Below, in pieces: positions 54,546 through 64,000 of a stretch of 64,000 bases of DNA; within the stretch, counting starts at the first letter, position 1, and every line of letters begins with the position of its first letter. This stretch comes from a phage, in sequence record NC_103192.1; one strand, 5' to 3'. The translations under genes and the position numbers were made by a program. The notes beneath the pieces are model-generated. The model was not told the origin of the DNA. It made no database searches and saw only the letters and a program-made list of their open reading frames with translations.

Positions 54546-55307
54546 TTACAGTTCCATAAAGTTTTCTACGATGTCAATGAATGTTTTATCAGAGAAAGCG
54601 TCAACCGCCCCGTTAAACCAAACTGGGATGCCGCGATCCTCATACTGGTAAATGTCACTACGTGAAATGCCATTCTCCCCTAAATGCTGTGAGTCGTATT
54701 TGTTAACGATCAGTAGTTTAGTCCCCTTACTACAGGCAGGAAACAGCTCCCAGTTAAAATTGATAACTGTGTTGGAGCACCCTACAAGAATAACCATATC
54801 ATTGCTAGTCAGAGAAGTCAACAGGTCATACATGTCTGTATACTTTGGAGCTACTTCTCCGAAGAACACTACATTAGGCTTGACCCAAGTATACTTGCTT
54901 GCATCTACCTCAGAGTATCCAATGTCTTTAATGACGTCACTCCCCTCATCATCCTCATAGACTATTTCTGGCAAATATCCGTGGACATGTAAAATATCTT
55001 CATGTTTTACACCAGCACGCTCCAGCAAATCATCTACATTGGTGGTCAGGTTGATCACACGACCAGACCAGCGGGAATACCACTCAGCGATCCGAAGATG
55101 CGCAAGGTTAGGATCAACACTGCCCAGAGCTACACGTCGTGCATTGTAAAAGTCATGCACCTTATAGTAGTTCTTGGCAAAGGTGTGGATGTTACACACC
55201 TCATCGATGCTGAAATTCTCCCACATTGCAGTGCCACCAGACCGGAAAGTGGGGATACCAGATTCAGCGCTCAAACCAGCACCGGAGATAATGATCAGTC
55301 GTCGCAT
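54546..55307 (-). CDS. Sir2-family NAD-dependent deacylase/ADP-ribosyltransferase
   Basis: GAGLSAESGIPTFRSGG...MWENF, TTNVDDLLERAG, VHGYL catalytic His; no clear Zn-ribbon cysteines. Confidence 0.75.
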   Translation of the reverse strand: MRRLIIISGAGLSAESGIPTFRSGGTAMWENFSIDEVCNIHTFAKNYYKVHDFYNARRVALGSVDPNLAHLRIAEWYSRWSGRVINLTTNVDDLLERAGVKHEDILHVHGYLPEIVYEDDEGSDVIKDIGYSEVDASKYTWVKPNVVFFGEVAPKYTDMYDLLTSLTSNDMVILVGCSNTVINFNWELFPACSKGTKLLIVNKYDSQHLGENGISRSDIYQYEDRGIPVWFNGAVDAFSDKTFIDIVENFMEL

Positions 55308-55315
55308 AAGTGTCC

Positions 55316-55666
55316 TCAGTAGATGTTTTGTTTAATCTCTATTCCAAACTTTTTAAACGAGTCAGCTGCAAGCATGAATTTACGAGCAGCTGATGGGTTA
55401 GAAGTATGCACGAAAATCTTCACGTTGTCAACTACAGGAGGCTTACCAAATACAAATTTTTCCTCTAGGAGGCAGAAGCAATCGTATCCTTCAAGAATTT
55501 CTCCCAAGTCGCTGTCAAAATGCCACTCAGAAACGCGCCTGTAGAGCTTTCCCTTATCGTTAATAAAATCCATAAACTCAGAAGAATTCTTTAGCCACAG
55601 AGCGTCTGGGAGTCCATAATCTGACGGATCTCTAAAATCATCAAGCCACACAATCCACTTCTTCAT
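55316..55666 (-). CDS. Hypothetical protein
   Basis: 4-nt overlap with upstream ligase gene. Confidence 0.4.
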   Translation of the reverse strand: MKKWIVWLDDFRDPSDYGLPDALWLKNSSEFMDFINDKGKLYRRVSEWHFDSDLGEILEGYDCFCLLEEKFVFGKPPVVDNVKIFVHTSNPSAARKFMLAADSFKKFGIEIKQNIY

Positions 55667-56598
55667 TGCATATAGTCCTCGTTGTGGAAATAGTAGTCCA
55701 GTATCTCACGACGCTCCTGCTCTAATAAGCAATTCCACACATCTTCTGTATAGTTGCTACGAATAAATTTTACCATACCGTAAAACTCTTCGTCAACACG
55801 TTTAAAGATATCATCATCCCAAATCTTCCAAGCTTTACCCCTCATTACGGCCTTCCGTGCCAAATAGTATGGAGACTTGATCTTCAGCTGCAGATCATAA
55901 GGGTAGTAAGGCTTACGAATCATATACCCTTCACCTCTTGTTTCTGCAGCTAATTCTTTTGCATAGCTGAACGGAATTTCACGCACAGTGTGAGGACGTT
56001 TTGCACCAAGGTATTTGGCAATCCCATCTAAAGCTGCTTCTGGTAGCATTATTCCAGAATCATTATATCTGCAACCTATCAAATATGCGCCATGATCTTC
56101 CTGAACAATATGCGGATCTGAAGGGTGACAAATTTCAAACATGAATGTCATGTTTTCATGGCCCATAACCTTCTTGATAAGATCTAAATTACCACATTGC
56201 TCCTGGATGGTTTCCTTTGCAAGGTTACAATATGGAGAATCAAGAGACCCGGTTGTTGAAAACAATAGTTCACCTTTATGAGATGATACCACACCAAGGA
56301 ATCCGTTCTTTTTCTCTACCACCGTCACAAGTTTATTGTCAGGCAGGTTGGTGGAATTTTCTCCCAAGTTAAACACTTTTGTGAAGGGCCATGCCACAAC
56401 ATTTCCTTCATTACCGACAACAATGCCTCGGCACTCCAGCAAACGAGGAGACAAATGCCATAAATTGTTGTAGAATACTTTTCTGGCATATTTATAGATC
56501 TTTAACCCAAGATCCGGGTAATATCTGCTGGTTACAAGACCTTTGTCAACTAGGTCGTCTGCATTAAAATACTTCATCATACATTCCTCATTTGTCAT
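55663..56598 (-). CDS. RNA ligase-like nucleotidyltransferase
   Basis: Motif I VVEKKNGFLG, motif IV EGYMIRK, motif V LKIKSPYYL; context with kinase and phosphoesterase. Confidence 0.5.
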   Translation of the reverse strand: MTNEECMMKYFNADDLVDKGLVTSRYYPDLGLKIYKYARKVFYNNLWHLSPRLLECRGIVVGNEGNVVAWPFTKVFNLGENSTNLPDNKLVTVVEKKNGFLGVVSSHKGELLFSTTGSLDSPYCNLAKETIQEQCGNLDLIKKVMGHENMTFMFEICHPSDPHIVQEDHGAYLIGCRYNDSGIMLPEAALDGIAKYLGAKRPHTVREIPFSYAKELAAETRGEGYMIRKPYYPYDLQLKIKSPYYLARKAVMRGKAWKIWDDDIFKRVDEEFYGMVKFIRSNYTEDVWNCLLEQERREILDYYFHNEDYMQ

Positions 56599-56698
56599 TT
56601 TGTCCCTTTATTCTGCCACACAAATAACCCAGTGTCAACACTTGAAATTAACAAAACCGTTAGGTATACTATCATTCAAATTAAAACGGAGGGTTACT
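56599..56698. promoter_or_regulatory. Divergent promoter region between the minus-strand and plus-strand blocks
   Basis: Plus: TTGAAA, 17 nt, TATACT ahead of 56699; minus: TTGACA-containing sequence ahead of 56598. Confidence 0.5.
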
Positions 56699-57109
56699 AT
56701 GTCTAAAATGCTATATATCGTGCGTGGTCTACCAGGGTCTGGCAAATCAACACTGGCAAATGCGCTATCTTTAGAAGGTCTGTACCCACATTTTGAGAAC
56801 GACATGTTCTGGTACGACGATGACGGCAATTACAACTGGGATGCAAGTAAAGTAACACTTGCAGCAAAATGGTGCAAAGATAACGTAGAAGATATGATGC
56901 GTATGGGATACGACCGTATCGTGGTAAGTAATACGTTTACAAAAGAAAAATATGTTCAAGAATATATTGACATGGCGATCAGTCATGGATATAGTTATAC
57001 CGTGATCGTGGTTGAAAACCGCCATGGTAATAAAAGCATTCATGATGTTCCAGACAGGGTTGTGGATCGTATGGAACGCCAGCTTAAAAACTGCATTAAA
57101 CTTAAATGA
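56699..57109 (+). CDS. Polynucleotide kinase-like P-loop kinase
   Basis: Walker A GLPGSGKST at residues 10-18; SD ggaggg; 137 aa. Confidence 0.6.
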   Translation: MSKMLYIVRGLPGSGKSTLANALSLEGLYPHFENDMFWYDDDGNYNWDASKVTLAAKWCKDNVEDMMRMGYDRIVVSNTFTKEKYVQEYIDMAISHGYSYTVIVVENRHGNKSIHDVPDRVVDRMERQLKNCIKLK

Positions 57110-57116
57110 GGGATGT

Positions 57117-57671
57117 ATGAAATACTTTGTAACAAGCGACACACACTTTCTCCACCAGCGGGTAATGGAGTTCGACTCATGTCAAAAACACAGATCTCAG
57201 TATGATCACAATCTTGACAGTATGAATGCGGGAATCATCACCAAGTGGAACTCTGTTGTGTCACCTGCAGACACTGTGTTTCACTTGGGGGATATTGCGT
57301 GCACTAATGATAAGAATATCAACAAATTGCTTCCAGATGTTCTAAATATGTTGAACGGACATATTATTCTTGTTCGTGGTAACCATGACACAAGGACGAC
57401 TGTCAGAATTATGAAAGAGTTCGGTCATGAGGTTGTGGATTATTACGAGCTTCGCCACAACAAGAATTTGATCTGTATGAGCCATTACCAGTTTGCAACG
57501 TGGAACAGAAAGCATCACGGATCAGTCCAACTGTTCGGTCATGCTCACGGAACCACACAACAGTTGTTTGGCAGGCAGTTTGATGTCGGTTGGGATGTGT
57601 GGGGGAGACTCTTACCATTAGAAGAGGCATACCGTGTTGCAATGAGTTTTGCTATTGACAGCGGGGAGTAA
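57117..57671 (+). CDS. Calcineurin-like metallophosphoesterase
   Basis: SDTHF, GDIAC.ND, GNHD motifs in canonical order. Confidence 0.65.
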   Translation: MKYFVTSDTHFLHQRVMEFDSCQKHRSQYDHNLDSMNAGIITKWNSVVSPADTVFHLGDIACTNDKNINKLLPDVLNMLNGHIILVRGNHDTRTTVRIMKEFGHEVVDYYELRHNKNLICMSHYQFATWNRKHHGSVQLFGHAHGTTQQLFGRQFDVGWDVWGRLLPLEEAYRVAMSFAIDSGE

Positions 57672-60523: not shown

Positions 60524-60552
60524 TTGACAAACTTTGCCTAACAGTGTAATAT
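60524..60552 (+). promoter_or_regulatory. Sigma70-like promoter for the tRNA cluster
   Basis: TTGACA, 17 nt, TAATAT. Confidence 0.55.
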
Positions 60553-60600: not shown

Positions 60601-60675
60601 GCCACCCAGTGCCCTGTTAGCTTAGTGGATAAAGCAGCGGCCTTCTAAGCCGTTGACACTGGTTCGAGTCCAGTA
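60601..60675 (+). tRNA. tRNA-Arg (anticodon TCT)
   Basis: Hand-folded cloverleaf: acceptor GCCCTGT/ACGGGGT, anticodon loop CTTCTAA, T-loop TTCGAGT, CCA encoded. Confidence 0.7.
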
Positions 60676-60815
60676 CGGGGTGCCAAGTTCTTTTTAATGT
60701 AGCTTACTTTAGCAGAGTAAATCTTCGGCAAGTGGCGGTAACCACTTTACCGATACCTCATAGTTAGTGGTGAGAACACTAGCTATTTTAAAAAGAATTT
60801 AAATATTAGTATTTA

Positions 60816-60903
60816 GGTGAGTTAATTCCGTAGGGGTAGCGGGGCAGACTGTAAATCTGTTATCATTGCGATTCGGGTGGTTCGACTCCATCACTCACCA
60901 CCA
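60816..60903 (+). tRNA. tRNA-Tyr (anticodon GTA), long variable arm
   Basis: Acceptor GGTGAGT/ACTCACC, anticodon arm CAGACTGTAAATCTG as in E. coli tRNA-Tyr, T-loop TTCGACT, CCA. Confidence 0.7.
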
Positions 60904-61017
60904 AATTTATATTTTTAAATGCATAAATCATACAGATAATGGCATTGATATTTATCGTCGTTTATACTAGTCACTAACTGCTCGAAAATCAGTGTCATTA
61001 TCAGTATTGTTTATAAA

Positions 61018-61108
61018 AGAGGGTAGGGAGCAATGGTGCTCAAGCGGTCTTGAAAACCGTCCCGTTGAGGATGACTCGATGATGGTTCGATTCCATTATC
61101 CTCTGCCA
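61018..61108 (+). tRNA. tRNA-Ser (anticodon TGA), long variable arm
   Basis: Acceptor AGAGGGT/ATCCTCT, anticodon arm CGGTCTTGAAAACCG, T-loop TTCGATT, CCA. Confidence 0.7.
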
Positions 61109-61206
61109 TATTGTTGACTATGTAATTAAGCGAAAGCCGGAAGCAGAACCGGATTATCAAATGTTACAGTCGTCATCGCCGACTAGCAACATGGTCAACA
61201 TACTGA

Positions 61207-61305
61207 GCTAGGTAAGCCCTTTGGCAAGGGCGAGGATTTTTAATCCTGAAAATAGACGAGGTAGTCGTTGAATACATAGGTGGTTCGATTCCATCACCTA
61301 GCACC
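61207..61305 (+). tRNA. Atypical tRNA-like element (type II shape, irregular anticodon arm)
   Basis: Acceptor GCTAGGT/ACCTAGC, D-arm GCCC/GGGC, T-loop TTCGATT, long variable arm; anticodon region is either a 5-nt loop or a 4-bp stem with TTTTTAA loop; no CCA. Confidence 0.35.
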
Positions 61306-61310
61306 TTTTT

Positions 61311-61386
61311 GCTGATGTAGCACAATTGGTAGTGCAATTGATTTGTAATCAATAGGTTGCAGGTTCAAGTCCTGCCATCAGCACCA
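61311..61386 (+). tRNA. tRNA-Thr (anticodon TGT)
   Basis: Acceptor GCTGATG/CATCAGC, anticodon loop TTTGTAA, T-loop TTCAAGT, CCA. Confidence 0.75.
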
Positions 61387-61387
61387 T

Positions 61388-61462
61388 GGCCCTGTAGCTG
61401 GAAGGTTCAAGCAAGCGACTCATAATCGCCAGACGGTGGTTCAATTCCACCCAGGGCCACCA
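61388..61462 (+). tRNA. tRNA-Met or Ile2 (anticodon CAT)
   Basis: Acceptor GGCCCTG/CAGGGCC, anticodon loop CTCATAA, T-loop TTCAATT, CCA. Confidence 0.75.
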
Positions 61463-61473
61463 AATAATAAATA

Positions 61474-61550
61474 CTCCGCGTAGCTCAGCTTGGTAGAGTG
61501 CCTGATTTGGGATCAGGAGGTCGAGTGTTCGAATCACTCCGTGGAGACCA
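61474..61550 (+). tRNA. tRNA-Pro (anticodon TGG)
   Basis: Acceptor CTCCGCG/CGTGGAG, anticodon loop TTTGGGA, T-loop TTCGAAT, CCA. Confidence 0.75.
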
Positions 61551-62654: not shown

Positions 62655-63079
62655 TGTCTAAGATTTACGGACCGTGTTCTGAAAAGCAGAAGATGATCCT
62701 CGAAAACGATGCAGATATTTTGGTAATCGGCGGTGCCGCAGGGTCTGGCAAGTCGTTCCTCTTGCAGTTGATGCCACTTAAAATTATTGATGACCCCCAC
62801 AGCTCTGTGGTTATGTTCCGAAGAACAACCCCACAGTTGGAAGGTGAGGGTGGGCTATGGCCTAAAGCAGTAGCTATTTATAGCGATCTGCCTGAAAACA
62901 TTAAGCCAAAGTTCAGAGAGAAGGATCATAAGTTCATTTTCCCACGGTTTGATCCGGGCACTGGCAAGTGGGATAGAAGCAAAAAGGGAGCTGTTGTAAA
63001 ATACTGCCACATGGAGTATGTACAAGATAAGCTTAACCATCAAGGGCTTGAGTACACCATGGTTTGCTTTGATGAGGGT
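62654..63079 (+). CDS. terL: Terminase large subunit, exon 1 (ATPase N-terminal part)
   Basis: Walker A GGAAGSGKS, Walker B MVCFDEG; reading frame then hits a stop where the intron begins. Confidence 0.7.
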
Positions 63080-63398
63080 TAATTTGTAGCTCTCGTAAAA
63101 CCTCCCTAATTGCGGGGAAATCTTTATTATTGACACCACCAACCTGTCATGGTAACATGACAGAGGCTTCGAAGAGAGATCGAAGGTATGGTAACAGTGT
63201 GTTAATTTAGATAATCCGCAGCGAAGCATCCGAAAGGATGAACGTTCAACGACTAGTCGAAAGACGTAGAATCAAGCGATTCGAAACGGGAGGATAAGCG
63301 GTTGTTGTCGCTTATAAGATATAGTCTGGTCTGCATGGAGACATGCAGCTGCCTGAAAATGGCGGGGCAAGACTAGCGACCTTGCCCGAACATAAACG
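63080..63398 (+). mobile_element. Group I intron (ORF-less) in terminase large subunit gene
   Basis: GTTCAACGACTAGTC and AAGATATAGTC core elements (P7-like), P9-like hairpin; exon 1 ends on U of ggt; frame resumes TQFEWEQIDYLMSRL. Confidence 0.6.
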
Positions 63399-63716
63399 AC
63401 GCAATTCGAATGGGAGCAGATAGACTACCTAATGTCTCGTCTGCGATCTCAGTCAAAGTATCCATCAAGAATGGTTATCAGCTGTAACCCCGACTCAGAA
63501 CACATGCTTGCCAAACTGATTAGGTGGTGGTTGGACGATGAAGGGTATCCAGATCCGGAGAAATGTGGTAAGAAAAGATATTTTATCCGACGCGACGGTG
63601 AATTTATCTGGGGAGACTCTAAGGAAGAGTTAATAGAGAAATACACCACGGTTAACGGACTAGGTGTGGAGATCAAGCCAAGACCGTTGTCATTCTCGTT
63701 CATAGGCGCAACCATT
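63399..63716 (+). CDS. terL: Terminase large subunit, exon 2
   Basis: Continues the ATPase domain (RMVISCNPD region) in frame after the intron; ends at a stop followed by a second intron. Confidence 0.6.
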
Positions 63717-64000
63717 AAATGATAGTGGCTTCGTGCAGAAATGCACGTCGAATAACTTCGTTAATTGCTGGAAAATCCTTTATGAAAGGACAATCAGCAG
63801 CCAAGCCTGAATATTCAGGAAGGTTCAACGACTATCCTGAGAGGGAGTAGGGCGCAAGCTTATGGCGCTCGAAAAGCGAAGCACCCTGAGATGGGTGGTG
63901 ATATAGTCTACTCTGCATGGTAACATGCAGCGGCACGTAATGGTGCGGAGGGTGGTGTTGCGACCACCCTTGAATATAAGGATTCGATAATCCTGTCTGC
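63717..64000 (+). mobile_element. Second group I intron in terminase gene (3' end beyond window)
   Basis: GTTCAACGACTA and GATATAGTC elements and a P9 hairpin closely resembling intron 1 and the nrdD intron. Confidence 0.55.

Follow-up and report, generated by a model that had tools for sequence, protein, structure and literature searches.

Introduction

The anticodon arm of tRNAs universally consists of a 5-bp stem and a 7-nt loop, and a D arm with a 6-bp stem and a 4-nt loop is a hallmark of tRNASec (PMC7609411). Some allo-tRNAs, selC* tRNAs and irregular tRNAs are charged but unused in translation and have been proposed to be regulatory (Mukai et al., PMC5389517), and phage tRNAs have been proposed as a counter to tRNA-targeting defences (PMC10264068). 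Here we analyze a 99-nt tRNA-like element read directly from positions 61207-61305 (plus strand) of a 64,000-nt stretch of phage DNA (NC_103192.1, referred to as the window in the rest of the text). The element very probably is a selected, non-canonical tRNA-like RNA. Judged from the comparison of its copies, it is a phage-restricted, single-copy and structurally selected RNA gene in which the acceptor, T and elbow half is normal and the anticodon half abnormal.

The window belongs to an rV5-like coliphage (Vequintavirus), and its tRNA region is 99% identical to that of Escherichia phage ECML-10, with many other relatives matching. The GenBank labels given to the element are inconsistent, ranging from nothing at all or a hypothetical protein to tRNA-OTHER, tRNA-Pseudo, tRNA-Lys, tRNA-TERM and tRNA-???(atcc), and feed errors into codon-usage and suppressor-tRNA surveys. 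The rV5 genome paper gives six tRNAs, the element not being among them (PMC3606486), and the literature on tRNA-like RNAs, decoys and suppressor tRNAs of rV5 and the Vequintavirinae yielded no description of it.

Results

A cloverleaf with a short anticodon-like hairpin and a long variable region

The original prediction, made from the sequence of the window, had described an atypical tRNA-like gene with an acceptor stem, a D arm, a T arm carrying TTCGATT and a 31-nt variable region, all of which are present. The 5′ strand of the acceptor stem (GCTAGGT, 61207-61213) pairs with its 3′ strand (ACCTAGC, 61296-61302). The linker bases A8 and A9 (61214-61215), the former standing where U8 is near-universal in tRNAs, lead to the D arm (GCCC-TTTGGCAA-GGGC, 61216-61231), which is followed by G26 (61232) and by a short anticodon-like hairpin (AGGATTTTTAATCCT, 61233-61247) of 15 nt instead of the 17 nt of a canonical arm. 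The variable region (61248-61278) consists of a purine-rich 5′ linker (GAAAATA, 61248-61254), a 5-bp hairpin (GACGA-GGTAG-TCGTT, 61255-61269) and a 3′ linker (GAATACATA, 61270-61278). Beyond the T arm (GGTGG-TTCGATT-CCATC, 61279-61295) and the acceptor stem, the element ends with the discriminator A73 and CC (61303-61305), followed by TTTTT. The sequence thus reads A-CC-T and, as had been noted, encodes no CCA, unlike the canonical tRNAs of the cluster, six out of six of which do.

Energy minimization gives the cloverleaf as the optimal fold (−34.2 kcal/mol, z = −3.66), and none of 200 shuffled sequences folds as well. Two of its parts can be drawn in more than one way. In the D arm, the stem has 4 bp if the loop is taken as 8 nt and 6 bp, as in tRNASec, if the loop is reduced to the four bases UGGC; RNAfold and RNAalifold produce the longer stem by adding U14-A21 and U15-A20, whose bases are invariant in the alignment described below and are hence beyond the reach of covariation. 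The hairpin AGGATTTTTAATCCT can be drawn with 4 bp and the loop TTTTTAA or with 5 bp and TTTTA, the two alternatives that had been proposed, and also with 6 bp and TTT, the form that it takes in the minimum-free-energy fold. ARAGORN calls the element tRNA-??? with a meaningless 4-base anticodon, atcc, and the Rfam tRNA model (RF00005) matches 61207-61303 with 35.5 bits, compared to a gathering score of 29, by deleting one anticodon-stem pair and inserting about 26 nt in the variable region. The predicted irregularity of the anticodon arm therefore survives the scanners, neither of which finds a canonical one.

Several other readings of the sequence were rejected. The fold drawn by ARAGORN (ATTTT/AAAAT stem, 8-nt loop, atcc) relies on a stem that is not conserved, because the TTTT run is missing from other lineages. 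An intron or insertion hiding a canonical tRNA was discarded since a 7-nt loop is missing from the second hairpin too, and a standard arm can therefore be obtained by no excision. The sole open reading frame overlapping the element is a 59-aa reverse-strand TTG frame that also crosses the neighbouring tRNAThr, which leaves no support for a protein-coding reading. Comparing the lineages by hand, we found no consistent complementarity for loop kissing or a pseudoknot with the variable region or the linkers (UGGA/UCCA was seen only in some Seunaviruses). Likewise, the complement of the 3′ linker, considered as a target of the kind paired by small regulatory RNAs, matches only the element itself within the window, where about one match is expected by chance.

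Compensatory changes in every helix and at the elbow

Alignment A1 contains 32 distinct copies of the element, and the pairs counted in it are those of the acceptor, D and T stems, the outer three pairs of the anticodon stem and the tertiary pair G19:C56. The metagenome loci were retrieved with a pattern requiring ATACATAGG.GGTT.GATTCC, so that the invariance of these bases is partly by construction; the phage records derived from BLAST carry no such requirement. Of the 640 cells, 99.8% are paired, and both partners have changed in 11 of the 20 pairs. The alignment has a covariation score of 0.456, compared to 0.177 ± 0.012 in shuffled alignments, none of 500 of which reaches the observed value, and a control in which the 3′ partners were slid by 1-3 columns gave at most 0.107. 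All seven acceptor pairs are 100% paired, five of them with changes on both sides; pair 3:70 occurs as C:G, A:U or U:A and pair 4:69 as G:C, A:U or U:A. Three of the four D-stem pairs covary (11:24, 12:23 and 13:22), each being switched in about one third of the sequences, and the five pairs of the T stem are 100% paired. The inner pairs of the anticodon stem are also backed by compensation, for example AGGAT/ATCCT versus AGGTC/GACCT.

The variable hairpin is retained across lineages and changes in sequence and length (the whole variable region spans 31-41 nt), with compensatory replacements in its stem such as ACGA/TCGT by ACGG/CCGT, CCTCC/GGAGG by CCCCC/GGGGG and GCC/GGC by GTC/GAC. This changing hairpin is flanked by invariant linkers, GAAAA on the 5′ side (G nearly invariant, first A at ≥90%, the following three A invariant) and ATACATA on the 3′ side. 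A8 is found in 32 of 32 copies, position 9 is A or G, and G26 is an invariant column.

In Mydovirus-type copies the D loop TTTGGCAA changes to TTTGTCAA jointly with the change of the T loop from TTCGATT to TTAGATT, which converts the elbow pair G19:C56 into U19:A56 in 10 out of 10 sequences, with no exception. Such a coupled change is expected only if the RNA folds into the L shape. Together, the compensatory changes in all helices, the coupled tertiary pair and the invariant linkers indicate that the folded RNA itself is under selection. The suggestion that the element might be a pseudo-tRNA, if this means a gene in decay, finds no support in view of these changes and of its conservation across the whole subfamily.

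A covariance model built from A1, named R1, gives 91-119 bits to family members (104.8 for the window copy), compared to 27 bits at most for canonical tRNAs in the loci searched. Copies of the rV5 clade share 95-99 of 99 positions with that of the window, the canonical tRNAs being conserved similarly; the 98-nt spacer just upstream of the element is identical at 78-96 of 98 positions on the same contigs, falling to 78-80 of 98. The few substitutions within this clade turn a wobble pair into a Watson-Crick pair or are located in loops.

No copy has a canonical anticodon arm

A canonical anticodon arm of 5 bp and 7 nt was found in none of the 39 distinct copies read, namely the 32 of A1 and seven further Mydovirus and Seunavirus copies. 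Among the 32, the arm has 5 bp and 6 nt in 15 copies, 4 bp and 7 nt in six, 5 bp and 5 nt in three and 4 bp and 6 nt in one, while the remaining seven, of the rV5/Av-05 type, can be drawn as 4 + 7, 5 + 5 or 6 + 3. The loop is TTTTTAA in rV5, TTTATAA in Av-05 and [C/T/A]ATCAA[A/G] in the Erwinia and N4-like type; Seunavirus and Mydovirus loops follow C-N-N-C-C-A, with CATCCA in most and CCTCCA, CCACCA, CCGCCA, CTTCCA or CAGCCA in others, and CCTCAA and GTGATA occur in single copies. The central triplet of the loop is therefore TTT, TAT, TCA or T/A/G-CC according to the lineage, and most lineages have A or C at position '33'. We had considered the hypervariability of the loop as a sign of an arms race; after the addition of the seven Mydovirus and Seunavirus copies, most of which share CATCCA, this signal is only suggestive.

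The core and the 3′ end differ from those of tRNAs as well. A8, U14 and U15 are invariant in A1, compared to U8, A14 and R15 in tRNAs. The acceptor and T branch is 7 + 5 in all members and 100% paired in the 32 sequences, with the T loop reading TTCGATT or TTAGATT, and C2:G71 is invariant in the family. U73-CCA ends 24 of the 32 copies. The exceptions are the rV5 clade, which ends in A73-CC-T or A73-CA-T and alone has A73 instead of U73, and the Av-05 clade, whose copies end in T-ACA or C-ACA. Unlike the window copy, the Mydovirus and Seunavirus copies and those of loci L028 and L038 have no match to the Rfam tRNA model at E ≤0.01.

Decoding of codons in the normal way by members of this family is unlikely. 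The proposal that the element could be a non-canonical decoding tRNA is improbable for the family, which has no 5 bp + 7 nt arm and no conserved loop, but might apply to the rV5 clade alone, with its loop UUUUUAA and A73.

The tRNALys-like hairpin of the rV5 clade

Taking the loop and its closing pairs, the hairpin of the rV5 clade (GATTTTTAATC) shares 10 of 11 bases with that of E. coli tRNALys (GACTTTTAATC), the common stretch being GA[T/C]TTTTAATC; a search of 5,426 E. coli genomes confirmed the tRNALys sequence, which is 100% identical in every one of them. A73 is the discriminator of tRNALys, and A73 together with the anticodon UUU forms the identity set of E. coli LysRS. The rV5-clade element might accordingly be read as a working non-canonical tRNALys(UUU), charged by LysRS through U34-U36 and A73, whose altered anticodon arm (4-bp stem, U32) would make it a poor substrate for Lys-specific anticodon nucleases and which would sustain the decoding of AAA and AAG after the host tRNALys has been destroyed. 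The tRNALys of T5 reportedly plays such a replacement role against PARIS. The loop TTTTTAA indeed supplies Y32, U33, UUU, A37 and A38, A73 is peculiar to the clade, the phage has no other tRNALys, the Rfam tRNA gathering score is passed, and tRNAscan-based annotations say tRNA-Lys in several records. We nevertheless consider a working tRNALys unlikely. The anticodon stem would have four Watson-Crick pairs and a G.G, or else position 26 would be missing, in an arm that is 2 nt short and whose minimum-free-energy fold has 6 bp closing a loop of 3 nt. The element lacks U8 and A14, CCA is unencoded in contrast to the six tRNAs of the cluster, and orthologs of sister lineages bear non-Lys, non-canonical loops on the same body, including TTTATAA in Av-05.

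The family is found in phages and is present once per genome

BLAST retrieved about 125 rV5-like records carrying the element at ≥92% identity. With diverged copies as queries, distant homologs at 71-80% identity were recovered from Seunavirus (PVP-SE1, SSE121, 4MG), Mydovirus (Klebsiella and Raoultella phages), and Cronobacter and Erwinia phages. The Vequintavirinae bearing the element thus include phages of Escherichia, Salmonella, Klebsiella, Cronobacter, Erwinia and Raoultella, and every genus sampled has kept it while the canonical tRNA sets differ. Pattern scans revealed further variants in IMG/VR and in metagenomes. The same pattern had no match in 185,579 bacterial and archaeal species genomes (GTDB), and the element had none in 5,426 complete E. 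coli genomes, for which reason a host origin and prophage copies were rejected. There is one copy per genome; the family model finds a single one in the complete genome of phage DrSchubert.

Outside the subfamily, a copy lies within a tRNA cluster of Salmonella phage vB_SenP_UTK0002 (locus L012, 1501-1608), an N4-like member of the Schitoviridae unrelated to rV5. This copy is 88% identical to the Erwinia-phage version, which implies a probable horizontal transfer of the element or of a block of tRNAs between unrelated phage families.

In Escherichia phage V18 (locus L003, 1447-1543), a natural deletion has produced a chimera in which tRNATyr, up to and including its anticodon arm, is continued by the 3′ portion of the element, beginning with the variable hairpin. 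The acceptor stem of this chimera is mismatched, and it scores 34 bits on the family model. V18 is therefore a ready-made natural knockout of the element.

Three observations on individual records are worth reporting. Eighteen records with accessions MG0656xx, labelled as Campylobacter phages (C7, A142, A141 and others), contain the element in rV5-type genomes of about 135-140 kb; those among the matches listed are 99-100% identical to a 118-nt query, and the host label looks doubtful. In Salmonella phage GE_vB_MG (an UNVERIFIED record; locus L002, 2497-2605), two C runs are each one base shorter than in PVP-SE1-type copies, giving the loop CATCA instead of CATCCA and the 3′ end TCAA instead of TCCA, and the variable hairpin has an extra G; the losses in the C runs look like sequencing errors in homopolymers and not like real differences. 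BLAST reports two places in the latter record.

Genomic context of the element

The element is part of a tRNA cluster (60611-61550, plus strand) delineated with ARAGORN and Rfam. ARAGORN finds six genes in it, five ordinary tRNAs and the element. The cluster members are tRNAArg(tct) (60611-60685), tRNATyr(gta) (60816-60900 or 60816-60903; missed by ARAGORN, 39 bits with Rfam), tRNASer(tga) (61018-61108), tRNAThr(tgt) (61311-61386), a CAT-tRNA (61388-61462) and tRNAPro(tgg) (61474-61550), all on the plus strand. A consensus scan located a promoter-like site upstream of tRNAArg (TTGACA-17-TAATAT, 60524-60552, plus strand, 10/12 matches). Since the element adjoins tRNAs downstream of this site, co-transcription followed by processing by RNase P and at the 3′ end would be the natural expectation.

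Other members of the cluster are unusual as well, with three consecutive irregular long-variable-arm genes formed by tRNATyr, tRNASer and the element. In tRNATyr(GTA), position 9 is separated from the D stem by three additional bases (ATT), a similar extra linker being present in the tRNATyr of Av-05, and the gap between tRNAArg and tRNATyr is about 130 nt in the window compared to 4 nt in the relative DrSchubert. tRNASer(TGA) is missing among the Rfam matches at gathering level; it scores 39.4 bits on the Rfam tRNA-Sec model, below the gathering score, and better than on the general tRNA model. According to the rV5 genome paper, the tRNASer of rV5 was detected by ARAGORN only (PMC3606486).

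In the window, 5 nt separate the element from tRNAThr, and in other genera the gap between it and the CCA of the tRNA in front is 2 nt. Such close packing would suit an element without a function of its own, that is, a tRNA-shaped processing or stability element of the polycistronic tRNA transcript or a slowly decaying relic. The loss of the encoded CCA in the rV5 and Av-05 clades, the loss of half of the element in V18 and the habit of many annotators to skip it or to call it a pseudo-tRNA are in line with this explanation. Yet the neighbouring tRNAs already supply RNase P sites, and neither a processing element nor a relic would readily account for covariation in all helices and the tertiary pair, for invariant single-stranded linkers, for conservation exceeding that of the flanking spacer, for transfer into an unrelated N4-like phage, or for retention in every sampled genus of the Vequintavirinae despite differing canonical tRNA sets. 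We regard it as very improbable that the element lacks a function of its own.

About 3.5 kb upstream of the element, an RNA repair cassette (55663-57671) encodes a T4-Rnl1-type RNA ligase (55663-56598, minus strand; Pfam RNA_lig_T4_1, 1.3e-15), a P-loop kinase (56543-57109, plus strand; AAA_33, 9.8e-10) and a calcineurin-like metallophosphoesterase (57012-57671, plus strand; Metallophos, 3e-5). In a relative from the BASEL collection, the three genes are annotated as RNA ligase, polynucleotide kinase and putative phosphoesterase. Together with a gene coding for a SIR2-family protein (54546-55307, minus strand), the cassette forms an accessory block (54546-57671) beside the tRNA cluster. This three-gene RNA healing-and-sealing set differs in layout from that of T4, whose Pnk is bifunctional.

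Downstream of the cluster, Rfam identifies two group I introns (63070-63348 and 63706-63930, plus strand) about 360 nt apart, with 84.2 and 92.7 bits, respectively. By position they lie within the gene of the terminase large subunit, which in a relative is annotated as a two-piece joined coding sequence with a homing endonuclease inside.

Discussion

A possible decoy for a host tRNA-binding factor

Immunity by tRNA cleavage, which includes PrrC, RloC, PARIS, retrons, Schlafen-type and OLD nucleases, is an active field. tRNALys cut by the anticodon nuclease PrrC is repaired by T4 Rnl1 and Pnk, and with its own Rnl1-type ligase, kinase and phosphoesterase genes the phage appears equipped for a conflict over tRNA anticodon loops. 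To our knowledge, the counter-measures of phages known so far consist of repair enzymes and of canonical tRNAs serving as replacements; a tRNA look-alike that is conserved, covaries and is unable to decode normally would be a different one.

The whole explanation that we tentatively favour is that of a matured, non-decoding tRNA mimic engaging a host tRNA-binding factor. The element would be transcribed along with the tRNAs of the cluster and released as a small stable RNA by RNase P and trimming of the 3′ end, the CC of the rV5 clade presumably being completed to CCA by the host CCA enzyme. It would take no part in normal codon decoding. Instead, the tRNA body and its short anticodon-like hairpin might occupy a host tRNA-binding factor, with anticodon-loop nucleases like PrrC, RloC or PARIS as the most plausible target. 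The hairpin of E. coli phages would imitate the anticodon stem-loop of tRNALys and act as bait or as an unproductive pseudo-substrate, a role that would complement the repair cassette. We prefer this decoy mechanism because of the cassette, the imitation of tRNALys, the transfer into an unrelated phage, and the fact that positions 2-3 of the loop are the only multi-allelic columns of the tRNA-like core within Mydovirus. The tRNALys-like loop and the nearby repair genes make a context that fits the decoy mechanism; taken by itself, this step is possible and we hold it with low confidence.

Several points weigh against a decoy. It predicts that the loop of each lineage copies an attacked host tRNA, but only the rV5 loop has an obvious model; the loops CATCCA and ATCAA have no known nuclease target. 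To act stoichiometrically on a catalytic nuclease, a decoy must bind tightly or be very abundant. The proximity of the repair cassette to the tRNA cluster may be coincidental. With CATCCA common to most sampled Mydovirus and Seunavirus copies, the signal of a fast-evolving loop is weak. Finally, the element is dispensable at least in the laboratory, as its 5′ half is missing from V18, and aminoacylation, needless for a pure decoy, may matter given that 24 of 32 copies keep U73-CCA.

This last point leads to another explanation, in which the family would consist of aminoacylated tRNAs with a non-ribosomal or regulatory role, similar to tRNASec, allo-tRNAs, selC* tRNAs or tRNA-Other, or of weak opal suppressors in the lineages with UCA. 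Charging would occur through the acceptor and discriminator or through the variable arm, by SerRS or, via U73, by GlyRS or CysRS. Besides the encoded U73-CCA and the invariant C2:G71, the long variable arm and the D arm, with its possible 6-bp stem and 4-nt loop, recall tRNASec (PMC7609411). A long variable arm with G73 or U73 is taken as SerRS identity, and U73 with UCA defines selC* tRNACys (PMC5389517). For the Erwinia type, tRNA-Sec is the best match within the Rfam clan, and its loop CAUCAAA is one base off the tRNASec consensus CUUCAAA of Rfam. Seunavirus and Mydovirus loops keep N-C-C-A along with U73 and C2:G71, a combination that resembles the identity set of E. coli GlyRS. Against these likenesses, the branch of the family is 7/5 instead of 8/5, 8/4 or 9/3, position 33 is A or C and not U, and the variable hairpin sits on long single-stranded linkers, unlike that of tRNASer. 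The match to the tRNA-Sec model is unspecific, being under the gathering score and equalled by the genuine tRNASer of the window; the window copy has A73 and no CCA; and no gene for an enzyme using aminoacyl-tRNA was seen in the annotation of a relative. A charged, non-decoding tRNA therefore seems decidedly unlikely as the explanation of the family.

More broadly, the tRNA-mimic reading would mean that the Vequintavirinae and, by transfer, an N4-like phage carry a dedicated and so far unrecognised class of tRNA mimics, in which the body, with its 7/5 branch, tRNASec-like D arm, A8/U14 core and expanded variable region, is fixed, and the truncated anticodon hairpin and the discriminator shift with the host. 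At this level of generality the proposal is doubtful. The combinations of discriminator and loop seen are U73 with N-C-C-A, U73 with UCA and A73 with UUU, and each seemingly resembles a recognition set of a synthetase or nuclease. Such a class would comprise either charged but non-decoding tRNAs or bait tailored to host tRNA-targeting immunity; if true, either one amounts to an RNA-based anti-defence factor. The element is experimentally accessible as a single small gene of well-studied coliphages, including those of the BASEL collection, and its swapped core positions and compensated elbow pair are a natural experiment in tRNA architecture.

Comparison with known tRNA-like RNAs

The stable RNA species 1 and 2 of T4 (rnaC and rnaD) are likewise small, without assigned function and encoded at the end of a phage tRNA cluster, and rnaC has a tRNA-like T arm, as does the element. 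They differ in being 119-139 nt long and in not forming full cloverleaves. Homology was rejected since R1 has no match to either of them in the T4 locus (L044), where only tRNAThr and tRNALeu score, at about 24 bits.

The long variable arm is shared with tRNASec (RF01852), and the D arm of the family could form the 6-bp stem and 4-nt loop typical of the latter (PMC7609411). Aligned to the Rfam tRNA-Sec model, an Erwinia-type homolog has a D arm of 6 bp + 4 nt, and its loop CAUCAAA faces CUUCAAA. tRNASec has an 8/5 branch (13 bp) compared to 7/5 in the element, which is why its model forces mismatched acceptor pairs, and it has G73, compared to U73 or A73 in the family, whose anticodon arm is shortened and has A33. 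UCA occurs in some lineages only, with A33, and is absent from the window copy. Erwinia-type copies obtain 37.6-39.1 bits, less than the tRNA-Sec gathering score of 47. Given the 7/5 branch, the discriminator and the fact that tRNASer also matches, the resemblance should not be over-read.

As in allo-tRNAs, selC* tRNACys and irregular tRNAs, one unusual body carries diverse anticodons and a long variable arm, and U73 is common (PMC5389517). The trait formed by a long variable arm, G73 or U73 and diverse anticodons is found in the family, the window copy having A73. Allo-tRNAs and selC* tRNAs have 8/4 or 9/3 branches and longer anticodon stems, compared to 7/5 and a short arm, and are mostly bacterial (Clostridia, Acidobacteria, Proteobacteria; PMC5389517), whereas the family is restricted to phages of Enterobacterales. 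The tRNA-Other of Bacillus cereus is a predicted pseudo-tRNA, non-translational and with a physiological role (PMC3399842); it is chromosomal, the element phage-borne.

Phage tRNAs that counter defences are also encoded in phage tRNA clusters (PMC10264068), and the phage of the element has RNA repair genes in addition. The loop of the rV5 clade, a one-base variant of the host tRNALys loop, is comparable to those of such tRNAs. The latter are canonical decoders with point changes in a 7-nt loop, whereas the element has a truncated arm, an expanded variable region and an altered core. In the searchable literature, there appears to be no description of an RNA combining a 7/5 branch with a Sec-like D arm, A8 and U14 in the core, a truncated anticodon arm and an expanded variable region with conserved linkers. 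The kind of object is known: non-canonical tRNA-like RNAs located in or near tRNA clusters, as exemplified by rnaC and rnaD of T4, the allo-tRNAs and tRNA-Other.

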